Shown here: piece after piece, positions 6,880 to 48,451 of the stretch
Layout of the letters: every line of letters starts with the position of its first letter
Numbering within the stretch: the first letter of the stretch is position 1
Origin: Escherichia phage Bp7
Length of the DNA: 64,000 bases
Direction: 5' to 3' (one strand)
Sequence record: NC_019500.1
Made by a program: the position numbers and the translations under genes
Notes under the pieces: model-generated
What the model saw: only the letters and a program-made list of their open reading frames with translations
Told to the model about the DNA's origin: nothing
The model's database searches: none

Positions 6880-7321
6880 GAAAGCTAAGGAATTATCGGC
6901 AGGTATTTTGTTCATGACCGTTGATAAAGAACTAGTTATGGGTCGTGTAACAGGCTCTCGTAATCCAGAGAACATGCGTCATAAATGGGACATTCCTAAA
7001 GGTCATGTCGAACCAGGCGAAGAGCCTATTCAAGCGGCAATGCGCGAAACCGAAGAAGAGATTGGATTCACAGCATACGATCCTGCGTTCCTGAAAGACC
7101 TAGGTGAGTTCAAATATTCAAGCAATAAGAATCTACATCTGTTCTTATATACAGTGCCTGTGGAACACGAGCAGTTCAAGGATTGCAAATGTACAGCTTA
7201 CCATACGTTCCCTGATGGTCGTACTATTCCTGAATTCGATGCTTTTGCCTTGATTAAACGACCTCAATGGGAATATGTCATGGGCCCGTCGATGTTTAAG
7301 GTTTTAGATTCGCTCTTTTGA
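6872..7321 (+). CDS. nudE: Nudix hydrolase
   Basis: Nudix box GHVEPGEEPIQAAMRETEEEIG; sits immediately upstream of lysozyme as in T4. Confidence 0.75.
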   Translation: MSKKAKELSAGILFMTVDKELVMGRVTGSRNPENMRHKWDIPKGHVEPGEEPIQAAMRETEEEIGFTAYDPAFLKDLGEFKYSSNKNLHLFLYTVPVEHEQFKDCKCTAYHTFPDGRTIPEFDAFALIKRPQWEYVMGPSMFKVLDSLF

Positions 7322-7351: not shown

Positions 7352-7840
7352 ATGGATATTTTTGATATGTTACGTCAAGACGAAGGTCTTGATTTAAATC
7401 TTTATAAAGACACTGAAGGTTATTGGACTATTGGTATTGGCCAGTTAGTTACCAAGAACCCATCTAAAGATGTTGCTCGTGCTGAACTTGATAAGCTTAT
7501 GGGTCGAGTTTGCAATGGTCGTATTACTATGGCTGAAGCCGAACAACTCTTTAACCGGTCGGTTGAAAATGCTCGTAGAGCTATTCTGCGTAATCCTAAA
7601 TTGAAACCTGTTTATGATGTACTGGACGAAGTTCGTCGTTGTGCTTTAATTAACATGGTCTTCCAAATGGGTGAAGCAGGTGTAGCAGGGTTCACTAACT
7701 CTTTACGTATGCTCCAACAGAAACGTTGGAATGATGCGGCAGTTAACCTGGCCCAATCCCGTTGGTATAAACAAACTCCTAATCGTGCTAAGCGCGTTAT
7801 CGCCACCTTTAAAACAGGTACTTGGGCTGCTTATAGATAA
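7352..7840 (+). CDS. e: endolysin, T4 lysozyme family
   Basis: 162 aa; strong similarity to T4 lysozyme ([45 protein letters not shown]). Confidence 0.95.
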
Positions 7841-7845
7841 AAGCA

Positions 7846-7874
7846 GTTTACATCTCCTGCAGTCATGATACTAT
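7846..7874 (+). promoter_or_regulatory. early promoter (PeSL-type)
   Basis: GTTTAC, 17 nt spacer, TACTAT, then conserved box GATACTATAGACCTATCAACT; CTCCTGCAG/CTACAGGAG inverted repeat. Confidence 0.5.
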
Positions 7875-7901
7875 AGACCTATCAACTACAGGAGATTAAA
7901 A

Positions 7902-8345
7902 ATGACTCGTATCAACCTTACCTTAGTATCTGAATTGGCTGACCAACACTTAATGGCTGAATATCGCGAATTACCACGTGTTTTCGGTGCAGTTCGTAAG
8001 CATGTTGCTAATGGTAAACGTGTTCGTGATTTTAAAATTAGCTCTACTTTTATCCTCGGTACGGGCCATGTTACGTTCTTTTACGATAAGCTCGAGTTCT
8101 TACGTAAACGCCAAATCGAGCTTATAGCCGAATGTTTAAAACGTGGTTTTAATATCAAGGATACTACGGTCCAGGACATTAGTGACATTCCTCAGGAATT
8201 CCGTGGTGATTACATTCCTCAGGAATTCCGTGGTGATTACATTCCTCACGAAGCTTCTATCGCCATTTCACAGGCCCGTTTGGACGAAAAAATTGCACAA
8301 CGCCCTACCTGGTACAAACATTACGGTAAGGCGATTTATGCATAA
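7902..8345 (+). CDS. denV: endonuclease V, pyrimidine-dimer DNA glycosylase
   Basis: Near-identical to recalled T4 EndoV ([29 protein letters not shown]...) but 147 aa because of a 9-aa internal duplication. Confidence 0.9.
8187..8248 (+). repeat. perfect 27-bp in-frame tandem duplication inside denV
   Basis: ATTCCTCAGGAATTCCGTGGTGATTAC at 8187-8213 and 8214-8240, then partial third copy; encodes IPQEFRGDY twice. Confidence 0.9.
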
Positions 8346-8384
8346 GGGAGCAACCTGGACCTCACAATTCTGTGAGGGACTCCC
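8346..8384 (+). other. nested stem-loop element downstream of denV
   Basis: GGGAG...CCTCACA-ATTC-TGTGAGG..CTCCC; no U-tract follows. Confidence 0.35.
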
Positions 8385-8447
8385 GCCAACCTGTAATAAG
8401 GTCGAGCCCAAGTGCGGTAATGGGTAAATGCAGAAAGGGATTAATTA

Positions 8448-9035
8448 ATGTGCCAAGGAATGGCCCCACAACTTAAAAAAGAGCCAATTATGAAAACGTT
8501 TTTAACCGGTAGTTATCTATCCCTGATGAATGCTTTTGCAAACCATTCTGATGCTAGAGTAGAACACATTTGTAATAGTGGGTTTTATGTACCTGATTCA
8601 CAAACCCTGTTTAAAGAATGCTGCACCCTAAAACTTGATGGTGGACGCCAATCTGGTAAAACAAGGGCAGTATCCATTTTTGCGTCTGATTGGCTCGCAG
8701 GTGGCGGGACCGTAATTATTTTGTCTAATTGCGCCGCGTATGCTAATGTTTCGGCTGCTGCAATCCGAAAGGAATATTTTAATAACCATACAGAAAGTAT
8801 TAAGTATCGTTTGTACACTGATTCTGTTCGTAGTTTTATTGGTAATACTGCATGCAAATTCCGTGGATTATCGCTTTCACGTGTTCTGTATATAATTGAC
8901 GAGCCTGTTAAAACACCTGATATGGATAAGATTTATGATGCTCATATAAAGGTGGTGCAACATTGTTGTCATGCATCATGTGAAGAAACCAATCAAACCG
9001 CACGTCCTCTGTTCTTTGTGATAGGAATGCAATGA
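8448..9035 (+). CDS. P-loop NTPase-like protein (195 aa)
   Basis: Walker A-like GGRQSGKT and Walker B-like LYIIDE; start codon uncertain. Confidence 0.5.
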   Translation: MCQGMAPQLKKEPIMKTFLTGSYLSLMNAFANHSDARVEHICNSGFYVPDSQTLFKECCTLKLDGGRQSGKTRAVSIFASDWLAGGGTVIILSNCAAYANVSAAAIRKEYFNNHTESIKYRLYTDSVRSFIGNTACKFRGLSLSRVLYIIDEPVKTPDMDKIYDAHIKVVQHCCHASCEETNQTARPLFFVIGMQ

Positions 9036-9818: not shown

Positions 9819-9847
9819 GTTTACATCTCCTGTAGGTATGATACTAT
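9819..9847 (+). promoter_or_regulatory. early promoter (PeSL-type)
   Basis: GTTTAC, 17 nt, TACTAT; CTCCTGTAG/CTACAGGAG perfect inverted repeat spans promoter and RBS. Confidence 0.5.
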
Positions 9848-17668: not shown

Positions 17669-17680
17669 GGATAAATTATG

Positions 17681-17733
17681 TTCGAACAATTGGTCCCGAA
17701 GTCGCATGCTCCCGGCCGCCATGGCCGCGGGAT
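17681..17733 (+). other. cloning-vector polylinker-like sequence (pGEM-T-type, T7-side arm)
   Basis: GTCGCATGCTCCCGGCCGCCATGGCCGCGGGATT (17700-17733) matches the recalled pGEM-T MCS up to the T-overhang site; upstream ~20 nt is a diverged ApaI/AatII region. Confidence 0.75.
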
Positions 17734-17745
17734 TATCGTGATGCC

Positions 17746-18030
17746 ATGAAACAGTCCGTCGAGGACTATGATAAAGAAGTTGTCGACGGATATACTAATA
17801 GAGTTTATAAAACTGAATGCGAAGAAGGAGACTACAGGAGATTGCTCTTGGCCGCGAAGACCCAGGCCTTAATAAATCTAGACCGCAAGCAGGTAAAGTT
17901 GGCAGGCGACTTCAGAGATAAGCAGCGCGCCATTCGTAGTGATTATCAAGAGCGTATCGCTCAACAAAGGAAAACTGTGACCCAATCAGCGTGGTTTAGT
18001 GGACAAGCAGGTGAAAAAAGTTTCTATTAG
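17746..18030 (+). CDS. hypothetical protein (94 aa) inside the vector-flanked segment
   Basis: ORF with noticeably higher GC than flanking phage DNA, no clear RBS; function unknown. Confidence 0.35.
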   Translation: MKQSVEDYDKEVVDGYTNRVYKTECEEGDYRRLLLAAKTQALINLDRKQVKLAGDFRDKQRAIRSDYQERIAQQRKTVTQSAWFSGQAGEKSFY

Positions 18031-18032
18031 TT

Positions 18033-18061
18033 GTTTACATCTCCAGTAGAAATGATACTAC
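18033..18061 (+). promoter_or_regulatory. early promoter (PeSL-type variant)
   Basis: GTTTAC, 17 nt, TACTAC; CTCCAGTAG/CTACTGGAG inverted repeat with compensatory changes. Confidence 0.45.
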
Positions 18062-18087
18062 AGACATATCAACTACTGGAGGTTATC

Positions 18088-18582
18088 ATGAACGCTAAAG
18101 ATATTTTTTCACTGATTAATTTCAACAACGGTAATTTCAAATCTGAAAAACAAAGCAAGTTCTTTAACGACGTTGCTTGTGGTAATGAGATTACTGTATC
18201 TGGAGGAGAGATTTACAAAAGCCGTTGGAACTGGATTGTTATCATCGATTCAGTTGGTATTGTAGAGCTCTATAAAAACACCAACAAAAAACGTACTCTT
18301 CACTGGAGTCGTGAAACCAATCAAGCTTATCAAGCTGAACGTAACAAACGTTTAATGCCTACCGAATCCGACCTGGCAAACGTTAAATCTGATATCGCTT
18401 ATTTCGATAATCTGATTGCTGAACAACAAGCTGTTATTGATAAGTTTGACGAAATCAAAGCTTGTAAAGAGATTCCTGAATTCATGCGGGAATCAGTAAA
18501 CGAACAGTACGCCCTCACTTCAGGTCGATCAATAGTGCGAACCCCTGCAAGTCGAACATCTGGGAGAGCTCCGATCGCGTAG
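18088..18582 (+). CDS. hypothetical protein (164 aa); 3-prime end runs into vector-like sequence
   Basis: ATG 18088 after GGAGG; last ~18 codons are encoded by polylinker-like sequence, so the native C-terminus is probably lost. Confidence 0.45.
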   Translation: MNAKDIFSLINFNNGNFKSEKQSKFFNDVACGNEITVSGGEIYKSRWNWIVIIDSVGIVELYKNTNKKRTLHWSRETNQAYQAERNKRLMPTESDLANVKSDIAYFDNLIAEQQAVIDKFDEIKACKEIPEFMRESVNEQYALTSGRSIVRTPASRTSGRAPIA

Positions 18583-18592
18583 TATGAAGAGC
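18528..18592 (+). other. cloning-vector polylinker-like sequence (pGEM-T-type, SP6-side arm, diverged)
   Basis: ATCAATAGTGCGAACCCCTGCAAGTCGAACATCTGGGAGAGCTCC... aligns to the recalled MCS at ~80 percent identity; SpeI/NotI/PstI/SalI/NdeI each lost by point changes. Confidence 0.65.
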
Positions 18593-23747: not shown

Positions 23748-24563
23748 ATGCAAGATTTCGGACATTGGGCGGTATTTGAAGAAACCGATATTAAAAACCA
23801 TATTGGATTTGTATACGTAATCACTTTTGAAGATGGCAAAAAATATGTAGGTGCTAAAAAGATTTGGAAACGAATTAAAGCTGCACCTTGCACATTTAAA
23901 CGCGGCCCTAAAAAAGGATTTGAAGAATCTGATTGGAAAACCTATACCTCATCATCTAATGAACTAAACGCAATGATAGAAAAGGGTATAAGTCCTAAAG
24001 AGTATCTTATTGTAGGATGGTATCCTACTTGGGGTAAAACTCTTATGGCAGAAATGGAAATGCAATTAGCCAATGATGTTTTACGAGACCCTATGTGGCT
24101 TAACAAGCAAATTGGCGGACATTTCAACCCTAACTGCTTTGACGATTTAACCGAAGATGATATTGCAAGATGGATGGAATTTGATAAAGGGAACGAACAT
24201 GTTTCCTGGCCTATGATGTACAAAATAGGTCAGAAAACCAAATATGTTAAACCTGACGAAGTTGGCGAGTATATTAAATCCGGGTGGCAATTTGGTCGTT
24301 CTAAAACAGAAAAACATTCTGTTACCTATAATTGCTCTAAATTTACTATATGGGACTATCAAGAAAATAAAGCAGTGGAAGTTCTAAATCAAAATGAGTT
24401 TGCTCGTAATAATGATTTAAGTAGTAACCATCTAACTAGACTACTTCAAGGAACTCTCGATCTTATTAAAGATCGCTGGGGACTTCCACCAGATATTGCT
24501 CGTCAGCGTTATAAATTTCAGACGTTTCTTCAGGAACAAAATTTTTATCTAATTCCGAGTTAG
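23748..24563 (+). CDS. GIY-YIG-like homing endonuclease candidate (271 aa)
   Basis: N-terminal GFVYVITFEDGKKYVGAKK resembles the GIY-x10-YIG motif. Confidence 0.45.
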   Translation: MQDFGHWAVFEETDIKNHIGFVYVITFEDGKKYVGAKKIWKRIKAAPCTFKRGPKKGFEESDWKTYTSSSNELNAMIEKGISPKEYLIVGWYPTWGKTLMAEMEMQLANDVLRDPMWLNKQIGGHFNPNCFDDLTEDDIARWMEFDKGNEHVSWPMMYKIGQKTKYVKPDEVGEYIKSGWQFGRSKTEKHSVTYNCSKFTIWDYQENKAVEVLNQNEFARNNDLSSNHLTRLLQGTLDLIKDRWGLPPDIARQRYKFQTFLQEQNFYLIPS

Positions 24564-24932
24564 AAGAATTTTACGGTATGACACGCGGTCAGGCTAACAA
24601 AGCCGTTAAAGATGGAAGAGCCGTTAAATTGGTAGTCGAAAGCAAAGAAGACCACATTAAAAACTTGGCTCTATCGAATTGGTAAAACCGAAAAGACAAA
24701 AGTTACGTCTCAAGTAATGCTTAACAGTTTTAAAGATATAGTTAATCCTATGACCGATACCGAAAAATCAGAAATGATTGAATGGTTGGAAAGTTATATA
24801 ACTTATTTGAAATCTTAATGAGGAAATCGCTTAAATGATTAATTTTTATGGCTTAACCGAATCTATGAATGATATTATCCGGCGCATGGGTGTTGAGTAT
24901 CCTGCTCAATGGTTATTTGTTGTAACTAATAC

Positions 24933-32591: not shown

Positions 32592-33308
32592 TTATTGAGG
32601 CTTCATTTTACAGTTATCGAAATGCCAACGATTCATATTACCGGAATTCCCTTGTTTACCACAATGAGGGCATTCTACCTTCTTTTCTGATTTTTTGCGC
32701 CCGTTAGGATTTTTCTTACAAAAAACTTTATGAGCCGCAATAACACAGGATTTTCCTGAAAGGCCGCAGAATTCACATTCCACAATTTTATAGACCATGT
32801 TTTCTAGGCCTTTCTTTATTTTTAATTTTTGCTCCTCAGATATAGAGCGGTCCACTTTATTAGGGCCTTTAGGGCAGTTATCGAAATGCCATCTGTTCAT
32901 ATTGCCTACCAATCCAGTTTTACCGCAGTGTGGACAGGTAACTCTAGGCTTTTTTAAAGCGGAAATTGACATTTTCTTTCTGGTTTCTTCCGAGAATTCT
33001 TTATCCTTTTGGACTTCTGAATTCTTACGACGAAGCCATCCAAATAATTTATTTTTAGACCTATCAGCTTTTGGTGAGCTAACTGTCATCATTCTTGCTG
33101 CATAGACTAACGATGCATTATCTGGATGGATTTTAACTAACAACTGATGAGCCAAGTAATGTTCTTCAGGTGTTAAGTCTACCAAGTTTAAAGCGTCGTC
33201 CGTTCCACCCATGCATTGTGGTATAATGTGATGACGTTCTTTATAGGTAGTTAAATTTCTATTAACTGCTCGTTGAATAAGCTTTTCGTATATTGATTTA
33301 TAATTCAT
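32592..33308 (-). CDS. HNH homing endonuclease (Mob-like)
   Basis: Minus strand; HHIIPQCMGG...N...H HNH motif plus repeated CPHCGK...NMNRWHFDNC zinc-binding modules; ATG 33308 after AAGGA. Confidence 0.8.
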   Translation of the reverse strand: MNYKSIYEKLIQRAVNRNLTTYKERHHIIPQCMGGTDDALNLVDLTPEEHYLAHQLLVKIHPDNASLVYAARMMTVSSPKADRSKNKLFGWLRRKNSEVQKDKEFSEETRKKMSISALKKPRVTCPHCGKTGLVGNMNRWHFDNCPKGPNKVDRSISEEQKLKIKKGLENMVYKIVECEFCGLSGKSCVIAAHKVFCKKNPNGRKKSEKKVECPHCGKQGNSGNMNRWHFDNCKMKPQ

Positions 33309-33351
33309 TATCAAATCCTTATTTGATACAGCGACCGATAAAGATATTTAT

Positions 33352-34048: not shown

Positions 34049-34747
34049 ATGAAATTCTCTAAAGAAACTCTGAACATTCTGAAAAACTTCTCCGGTATTA
34101 ACCCAGGTATCATGCTTAAACCTGGTAACACTATTCTAACTCGTTCAGTAACGGGTGCAAGTTATGGTGAAGCTACTGTAAATGACACCTTTGATATCGA
34201 AGCCGCAATCTACGACCTGAACGGCTTCTTAAGTATTCTGTCATTGGTATCTGATAGTGCTGAAGTTTCGGTAAGTGAAGACCAAACCACCTTAATTATT
34301 AAAGACCAACGTTCAACTATTAAATGGCCTATTGCCGACCCAAGTACAATTGCATTCCCAAGCAAAGCTATTCCATTCCCGGTGGCTGAAGTTATTTTCG
34401 ACCTTAAAGCCGAAGATTACCAACAGTTGATGCGTGTGTCCTCTGGATTGAGTATTGATACATTTGCTATCACTGTAGACAACGGTAAAATTGTAATCAA
34501 TGGCTACAAACAAGTTGATGATAAGGACCTGGCACGTCCATTGTATTCCTTAGTGGTTGCAGACCATGATGGTCCTGAATTCAAATTCATTATCAACAAA
34601 ACTAATATGAAAATGATGCCTGCCGATTACCATGTATTGTTATGGGCTCGTGGTGAAGGTCAGGACGCTCGTTTCGCAGCCAAGTTTGAAGGTTCACAAG
34701 CTTCTTATGTATTGGCTATGGAAGCAGGCTCAAGCCACTCGTTCTAA
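34049..34747 (+). CDS. 45: sliding clamp gp45
   Basis: 232 aa; N-terminus MKFSKETLNILKNF resembles T4 gp45; upstream of 44/62. Confidence 0.9.
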   Translation: MKFSKETLNILKNFSGINPGIMLKPGNTILTRSVTGASYGEATVNDTFDIEAAIYDLNGFLSILSLVSDSAEVSVSEDQTTLIIKDQRSTIKWPIADPSTIAFPSKAIPFPVAEVIFDLKAEDYQQLMRVSSGLSIDTFAITVDNGKIVINGYKQVDDKDLARPLYSLVVADHDGPEFKFIINKTNMKMMPADYHVLLWARGEGQDARFAAKFEGSQASYVLAMEAGSSHSF

Positions 34748-35325
34748 TGTATATATGTTATCATAATACGATAACCAACACTAAAACCAAGTGTGTCTAT
34801 CATTATTTTGGTAGACACCGTGTTACTGCTGAAGAATACTACGGTACAGGTAAGTTTGTTAAGAAATGCAAACGAGAAAATGCTATTACTCCAGGTCTTT
34901 GGGAGTTTTGTGTTGAAGTTATCCATACAGTGGATACGTTTAAAGAAGCCAAGATTATTGAAGAAGAGCTTGTTAAAGAAGGCATATCAAAATATGGTAT
35001 CCTTTGTGTTAATAAGAATCCTGGTGGTGATGGCGGTGTGGATTACCACACCGAAGAATCTAAACGTAAAATGTCAGAAACTAGAACAGGAAAATCAAGA
35101 ATATTTTCCGAAAGTCATAAAGAAAATTTAAGTAAACGAGCCAGAAAATACTCTGATGTTTGGTCCGAACCTGTATATTCAAATCTTAAAACCATTTGGC
35201 TGGAAACAGGTATGTTAAAACGCGGACGGTTTAGTACGCTTTTACAAAAATATGGGTATAATTATTCTGCGAATGAATTGAATAAAATTGTTAAACATTT
35301 TAATGAGGAAAATAATAATGAGTAA
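34747..35325 (+). CDS. Seg-like GIY-YIG-family endonuclease candidate, possibly degenerate (192 aa)
   Basis: Inserted between 45 and 44, overlapping both; NUMOD-like repeats (SKRKMSETRTGK, SESHKENLSKRARK); N-terminal GIY-YIG core atypical. Confidence 0.5.
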   Translation: MYICYHNTITNTKTKCVYHYFGRHRVTAEEYYGTGKFVKKCKRENAITPGLWEFCVEVIHTVDTFKEAKIIEEELVKEGISKYGILCVNKNPGGDGGVDYHTEESKRKMSETRTGKSRIFSESHKENLSKRARKYSDVWSEPVYSNLKTIWLETGMLKRGRFSTLLQKYGYNYSANELNKIVKHFNEENNNE

Positions 35326-48422: not shown

Positions 48423-48451
48423 GTTTACATCTCCTGTAGGCGTGATACTAT
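48423..48451 (+). promoter_or_regulatory. early promoter (PeSL-type)
   Basis: GTTTAC, 17 nt, TACTAT plus GATACTATAGACCTATCAACT box. Confidence 0.5.

Follow-up and report, generated by a model that had tools for sequence, protein, structure and literature searches.

The product of denV in phage T4, endonuclease V (EndoV, DenV or T4-PDG; PDB 2END, 1VAS and 2FCC; Pfam PF03013, Pyr_excise), is a pyrimidine-dimer DNA glycosylase with CPD-specific N-glycosylase/AP-lyase activity in which Thr2 (with its alpha-amino group as the nucleophile) and Glu23 are catalytic, and in which Arg3, Arg22, Arg26, Arg117 and Lys121 as well as the C-terminal aromatic segment bind DNA. To our knowledge, no catalytic or DNA-contact residue of T4 EndoV has been mapped to residues 96-104 in the loop between helices 2 and 3 (the H2-H3 loop). 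The denV genes of Dhakavirus phages (JS98/IME08/WG01-type) are all 417 bp long and hold a single copy of a segment that is present in two copies in the gene described here. More generally, the endpoints of T4 rII deletions and duplications fall at short repeats.

Here, we describe denV of Escherichia phage Bp7 (sequence record NC_019500.1), of which a stretch of 64,000 nucleotides (the window) was analysed. The window derives from a Dhakavirus-type T-even phage of the JS98/IME08/WG01 group with best matches that are 93-95% identical over 20 kb, and it is collinear with phage WG01 with nearly all genes intact. Within denV, the presence in the sequence of a 27-bp in-frame tandem duplication is confirmed.

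Results

Architecture of the repeat in denV

Locally, the gene order is nudE (ends at 7321), e (7352-7840), denV and a homologue of vs.8 (8490-9035). The features in and around denV are the following:

7846-7897, plus strand: early-promoter and stem-loop cassette of denV, GTTTACA-N16-TACTAT, with the flanks CTCCTGCAG...CTACAGGAG, conserved in relatives
7902-8345, plus strand: denV (endonuclease V/pyrimidine-dimer DNA glycosylase), 147 aa including the duplication
8185-8194, plus strand: direct repeat ACATTCCTCA, first occurrence, left boundary of the putative slippage substrate
8187-8213, plus strand: copy 1 of the 27-nt unit ATTCCTCAGGAATTCCGTGGTGATTAC, residues I96-Y104
8212-8221, plus strand: direct repeat ACATTCCTCA, second occurrence, the novel junction made by the duplication
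8214-8240, plus strand: copy 2, identical to copy 1, residues I105-Y113
8239-8248, plus strand: direct repeat ACATTCCTCA, third occurrence, the ancestral right-hand repeat, followed by CGAAGC (H-E-A)

The denV product matches Pfam PF03013 with 54.9 bits (gathering cutoff 23; E 1.2e-14). Its alignment to T4 endonuclease V (PDB 2END, 138 aa; E 2.9e-84) is full-length and has just one gap, of nine residues. The first-pass annotation had claimed that a 27-bp unit is present twice without mismatch followed by an 8-nt partial third copy, and this can be read directly at 8187-8248, where the partial copy, ATTCCTCA at 8241-8248, comes right after copy 2. Its further claim of an in-frame insertion by which a T4-like EndoV gains IPQEFRGDY agrees with the single gap and with the lengths of 147 and 138 aa.

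Tandem Repeats Finder reports the array at 8185-8252 (period 27, 2.5 copies, 97% matches, score 129), and this is by far the strongest tandem array within the 64-kb window. In a direct scan, each nucleotide was identical to the one 27 positions further on across 37 successive positions (8185-8221 versus 8212-8248). This run is the longest in the window for any period from 12 to 60, and because 20 shuffles gave maxima of only 9-14, it is not due to chance. The 10 nt by which the run is longer than the 27-nt unit reflect the three occurrences of ACATTCCTCA. The description in which this 10-bp sequence brackets a 17-bp spacer is a more informative phase than the 27-nt unit: removal of one unit gives GAC-ATT-CCT-CAG...TAC-ATT-CCT-CAC, i.e. 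a perfect 10-bp direct repeat spaced by 27 bp, in which the repeats are codons for D-IPQ and Y-IPH, or (D/Y)-I-P-(Q/H).

Relatives of denV carry a single copy

A megablast search of 50,697 phage records gave 64 records with a denV match; in all 64 the match spans 417 bp, compared to 444 bp here, and the duplication is absent. In an alignment with six relatives, T4 among them, the 27 bp form a clean insertion in the window only, and copy 2 corresponds to a 27-column gap in all aligned relatives. All nine alleles compared, T4 included, are single copy. With one copy removed, the window denV is 91-96% identical at the nucleotide level to these nine relatives, the closest being vB_EcoM_005 with 95.7%.

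In the relatives, the site of the first repeat reads ACATTCCTCA, ATATTCCTCA or GCATTCCTCA, and the site of the right-hand repeat is imperfect (ATGTTCCTCA, ATATTCCCCA or ATACTCCACA), so that the pair is ATATTCCTCA/ATATTCCCCA in T4 and ATATTCCTCA/ATGTTCCTCA in JS98. The exact repeat shared by both sites is 3-7 bp in the nine relatives versus 10 bp in the inferred single-copy ancestor, which has the longest repeat among the ten alleles compared. Only three private substitutions were found in denV, all synonymous, and one of them (TAT to TAC at Y104) extends the repeat to its full 10 bp. No private amino-acid change is present in the protein once a copy is taken out. This, together with the retention of all 34 positions that are invariant in a 77-sequence alignment, means that the gene is not in decay and that its local sequence looks clean.

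The allele was also searched for elsewhere. The exact 54-mer and a degenerate pattern for the junction had no match in IMG/VR, the degenerate pattern had none in JGI metagenome contigs or GTDB genome contigs, and a look-up of the exact 147-aa protein returned no record. The segment equivalent to T4 residues 82-114 is 32-34 aa long in 121 close relatives (the 120 best homologues plus T4), and the window protein with 42 aa is the sole outlier; among 268 homologues, none has a tandem peptide repeat of more than 4 aa. The duplication allele is a singleton in the databases searched.

The insert is predicted to lie in the H2-H3 loop

The invariant columns retained in the window protein include T2, R3, E23, R26, R126 (T4 R117) and Y138 (T4 Y129), and the nearly invariant R22 and K130 (T4 K121) are also kept. 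An AlphaFold2 model of the 147-aa protein, built with the 77-sequence alignment, has a mean pLDDT of 90.3 and a pTM of 0.85, and confidence is reduced only in the blocks 91-100 (mean pLDDT 68) and 101-110 (83). Helices are predicted at residues 14-36, 64-80 and 117-133, the last of which corresponds to T4 108-124, and the model superimposes on 2END with a TM score of 0.97 (target-normalised) and an rmsd of 1.0 A (Foldseek). Thus, the predicted fold is compact and all-alpha with three main helices as in other EndoV proteins; in length, the protein departs from the T-even type, in which close relatives have 137-138 aa and a fixed H2-H3 loop.

From the positions of the predicted helices and the superposition on 2END, the insert would be located in the long H2-H3 loop. 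The first-pass annotation had placed the insertion in the C-terminal region; the model points instead to the H2-H3 loop, at T4 residues 96-104, and away from the C-terminal aromatic DNA-binding segment. The pattern of confidence along the model also suggests that copy 2 occupies the native position and that copy 1 is looped out.

The R81-R117 segment is 34-48 aa long in 150 diverse representatives (approximately 35-60% identity) and 46 aa long in the window protein, and the variable part of the loop lies just N-terminal to a conserved I-P-x-x-[FW]...[YW]-x-P motif. Since loop length varies among distant homologues, the fold can apparently take extra residues here. On the basis of the model and the homologues, the nine-residue insert is probably tolerated, and the 147-aa enzyme probably still folds and keeps activity.

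A slippage model for the origin of the duplication

The copies are perfect and head to tail, a short direct repeat existed beforehand and the relatives are single copy, which is the pattern expected of slippage-type events. We suggest that the duplication arose in a single in-frame step inside denV, either through slipped-strand mispairing while DNA was being synthesised or through unequal exchange, with the two 10-bp ACATTCCTCA repeats as partners and a single-copy ancestor, in which these repeats flank the 17-bp spacer, as the substrate. EndoV residues 96-104 (IPQEFRGDY) in the H2-H3 surface loop are thereby doubled; one copy can take the native position and the other loop out, and Thr2, Glu23 and the DNA-binding residues are unaffected. 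The result is in frame because the repeats are spaced by 27 bp, and selection is not needed to account for it.

Other contributions to the event were also considered. A mechanism driven by secondary structure finds no support in the single-stranded DNA fold of 8170-8265, which is unremarkable (z = -0.95). The internal GGAATTCC palindrome is too short to matter, and an origin by EcoRI ligation was rejected because the single-copy gene has just one site here.

Natural in-frame indels are frequent in the comparison with WG01, with 13 of 3 nt and 12 of at least 4 nt. In a census of private indels against three relatives, in which the clean-flank filter missed the denV duplication and a pair of deletions in gene 46 (both of which were established separately), all other clean private indels were changes in homopolymer length and no other microhomology rearrangement was found. 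Because only homopolymer changes are seen, there is no sign of rampant template-switching artefacts.

Vector sequence and frameshift errors in the record

The window contains the left arm of a pGEM-T-type polylinker at 17688-17734, extending to the T-overhang site (45/47 identical, 34 nt exact), and the right arm at 18528-18592 (about 53/65), which resembles a poor read end. The two arms enclose an approximately 793-bp phage insert at 17735-18527, and in the ORF starting at 17680 the first ~15 codons are vector-derived. The vector match was verified on a plasmid record of 3,004 bp (NZ_CP124361.1) that carries M13F-T7-MCS-SP6-M13R. The presence of the polylinker arms implies that at least part of the genome came from untrimmed Sanger reads of TA-cloned fragments.

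In addition, five single-base deletions in A/T homopolymers break ORFs, in each of which the protein is ~100% identical to the WG01 reference on either side of the deletion:

13602: homopolymer deletion, splits rI.-1
26453 and 26506: homopolymer deletions, split a 97-aa ORF
32140 and 32187: homopolymer deletions, 47 nt apart, split gene 46 (SbcC-like recombination nuclease)

Gene 46 is essential in T4, and the two deletions in it are therefore read as uncorrected sequence errors. Judged from the sequence comparison, the homopolymer deletions as a group are almost certainly sequencing errors.

Other features of the window

At 7836-7905, gene e is joined directly to the denV cassette, which holds the promoter-like match GTTTACA-N16-TACTAT, and the point at which e and denV meet is within the shared promoter segment GATAAAAG..GTTTACATCTCCT. 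Relatives have from one to three small genes (ipII, ipIII, orf) that separate e from denV, and usually an ORF of ~300 nt 3' of denV; neither these small genes nor the ~300-nt ORF are present anywhere in the 64-kb window. A model of cassette shuffling by PeSLs has been published (PMC2839356, PMC4122927), and the e/denV junction fits such PeSL-mediated modular shuffling. Assembly collapse is a less likely reason for the absence of these genes. Additional early-promoter cassettes of the type GTTTACATCTCC(T/A)GTAG are present at 9819-9835, 18033-18049 and 48423-48439; with up to three mismatches this pattern has 8 matches versus 0.5 expected by chance, and the extra cassettes are potential recombination hot spots like the e/denV junction.

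Immediately 3' of denV and before vs.8, a conserved non-coding element spans 8351-8471. It recurs in 21 IMG/VR contigs and in T4 (locus L004, ~1918-2037), whose annotation runs the vs.8 ORF across it. Its core of 32 nt, ACCTGTAATAAGGTCGAGCCCAAGTGCGGTAA, is invariant. Covariation is clear in an alignment of 17 sequences: each of the five pairs of an outer helix has two-sided changes (GGGAG/CTCCC, GGGAA/TTCCC, AAAGG/CCTTT, AAAGC/GCTTT and AAAGA/TCTTT), and one inner pair is seen as four pair types. The element has no match in Rfam 15, and Rfam and tRNA scans of the window found nothing. It may represent a structured RNA or 5'-leader of T-even phages that is as yet undescribed, and as a by-product of this analysis it has more potential than the duplication.

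The vs.8 homologue itself (8490-9035) is only 39.5% identical to that of WG01, although the flanking non-coding block and vs.7 are 97-100% identical, so that the mosaic boundary is sharp. A Walker-A-like GGRQSGKT motif can be seen by eye in the protein, and Pfam gives a weak match, below threshold, to the terminase large subunit (N-terminal region).

Three ORFs in the window are related, or may be related, to homing endonucleases. A SegE-like GIY-YIG ORF of 271 aa (23748-24563; PF19835 at 118.6 bits) and the ~370 nt after it (to 24945), in which there is no long ORF, take the position that gene 49 (endonuclease VII) has in WG01 and MX01; a homologue of gene 49 could not be detected anywhere in the window, and the sole trace is a 15-residue echo at 24771-24815. 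Directly after gene 46, an ORF of 240 aa on the minus strand (32592-33314) has Pfam matches (zinc ribbon, HNH) that are all below the curated cutoffs, and MX01 has an annotated homing endonuclease at this position. The 3' end of gene 46 is 83% identical to WG01 versus 98.8% for the remainder, as would be expected from co-conversion beside a homing endonuclease. Lastly, an extra ORF of 192 aa (34747-35325) between genes 45 and 44 is absent from WG01; its sole Pfam match, to NUMOD3, is below threshold, and the ORF may be an inserted homing-endonuclease gene of the seg/mob type.

Discussion

The data suggest that the denV duplication arose between two 10-bp repeats, and the question is where this happened. 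The first-pass annotation had offered a recent slippage or recombination event or, alternatively, an assembly artefact. The 10-bp microhomology supports slippage, the vector sequence and frameshift errors make an artefact credible, and these observations do not choose between the two. On balance, we lean towards a real phage allele, i.e. a very recent private mutation of this isolate or of a laboratory stock, and we infer that slippage occurred in the phage rather than in vitro.

Alternatively, and this is a serious possibility to which we give the smaller share of our confidence, the duplication was made during production of the sequence and the phage itself carries a normal 138-aa denV. A polymerase could have slipped or switched template across the 10-bp repeats in PCR or whole-genome amplification, or replication slippage or selection could have acted on a plasmid clone in E. 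coli, with a single clone fixing the consensus; less likely, two reads were mis-joined at the wrong copy of the 10-bp repeat. The vector arms and the ORF-breaking deletions make an origin in PCR, cloning or assembly credible, the sequencing template having gone through PCR or cloning, where the same slippage is possible, and the duplication is absent from every other sequence searched. However, the documented errors are of another type, namely homopolymer under-calls and vector ends, and tend to be paired ~50 nt apart as at read ends, whereas the denV region, with three private synonymous substitutions and no private amino-acid change, lacks such degradation. Moreover, vector sequence was found at one site only in a blastn scan of the window, with no match near denV, and among the clean private indels scored against three relatives there is no second microhomology-mediated rearrangement. 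As for a mis-join, the 64-nt tract is far below the length of a Sanger read and would therefore not be created by an assembler, and a true 37-bp overlap would outscore a 10-bp mis-join.

It appears improbable that the duplication is real and has been kept by selection, with a larger loop that alters EndoV function, possibly in DNA scanning, oligomerisation, substrate range or stability. A selected variant would agree with an ORF that is uninterrupted, in frame and complete in its invariant residues, with the preserved predicted fold and with the longer loops that distant homologues have here. On the other hand, zero divergence between the copies and the singleton status imply a very young event with no time for visible selection, the frame is kept by the 27-bp spacing of the repeats and not by selection, and loop length is essentially fixed among close T-even relatives. 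We regard as very improbable the specific version in which a natural allele is kept for modified scanning, self-association or lesion range of EndoV by way of the enlarged loop. If true, it would catch in the act the duplication of the I-P-x-E-F...D-Y motif as a source of loop-length diversity in this glycosylase family.

Finally, we give next to no credence to the repeat being a chance similarity or an ancient repeat of the EndoV family: T4-type EndoV does contain a short echo, D-IPQ ... Y-IPH, from which the flanking microhomology derives, but the reading is refuted by the shuffles (37 perfect positions against 9-14), by the lack of the extra 27 bp in the 121 close homologues and the nine aligned alleles, and by the survey of 268 homologues without a tandem peptide repeat of more than 4 aa.

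Whether real or an artefact, the duplication is ordinary. As a recent allele of the phage, the reading that we prefer, it carries little biological weight: it adds nine private residues to a loop of a UV-repair enzyme that is well known and dispensable, and is at most a convenient natural test of how well the H2-H3 loop of T4 EndoV tolerates insertions and a textbook example of a microhomology-mediated duplication. The practical value of the analysis lies in data quality: given the vector sequence and the frameshift errors in this window, its unusual features, the denV duplication included, should not be given a biological reading before resequencing.

Compared to T4 DenV, the window protein with one copy removed differs at 3 of 138 residues, and the two genes share the same upstream early-promoter cassette. 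T4 DenV has 138 aa and lacks the second IPQEFRGDY that is present in the 147-aa window protein, and its C-terminal aromatic segment is WYKYY, whereas the window protein has WYKHY, which is common to all Dhakavirus relatives. The denV genes of the JS98/IME08/WG01-type phages differ from the window gene by 1-4 amino acids at 91-96% nucleotide identity, and have the same order of denV and vs.8 with the conserved non-coding block downstream. With respect to mechanism, the duplication is the same in kind as the products of Streisinger-type misalignment. As in slipped-strand mispairing of this type, the copies in the window are identical, lie head to tail with no spacer and are bounded by a 10-bp direct repeat that existed beforehand.
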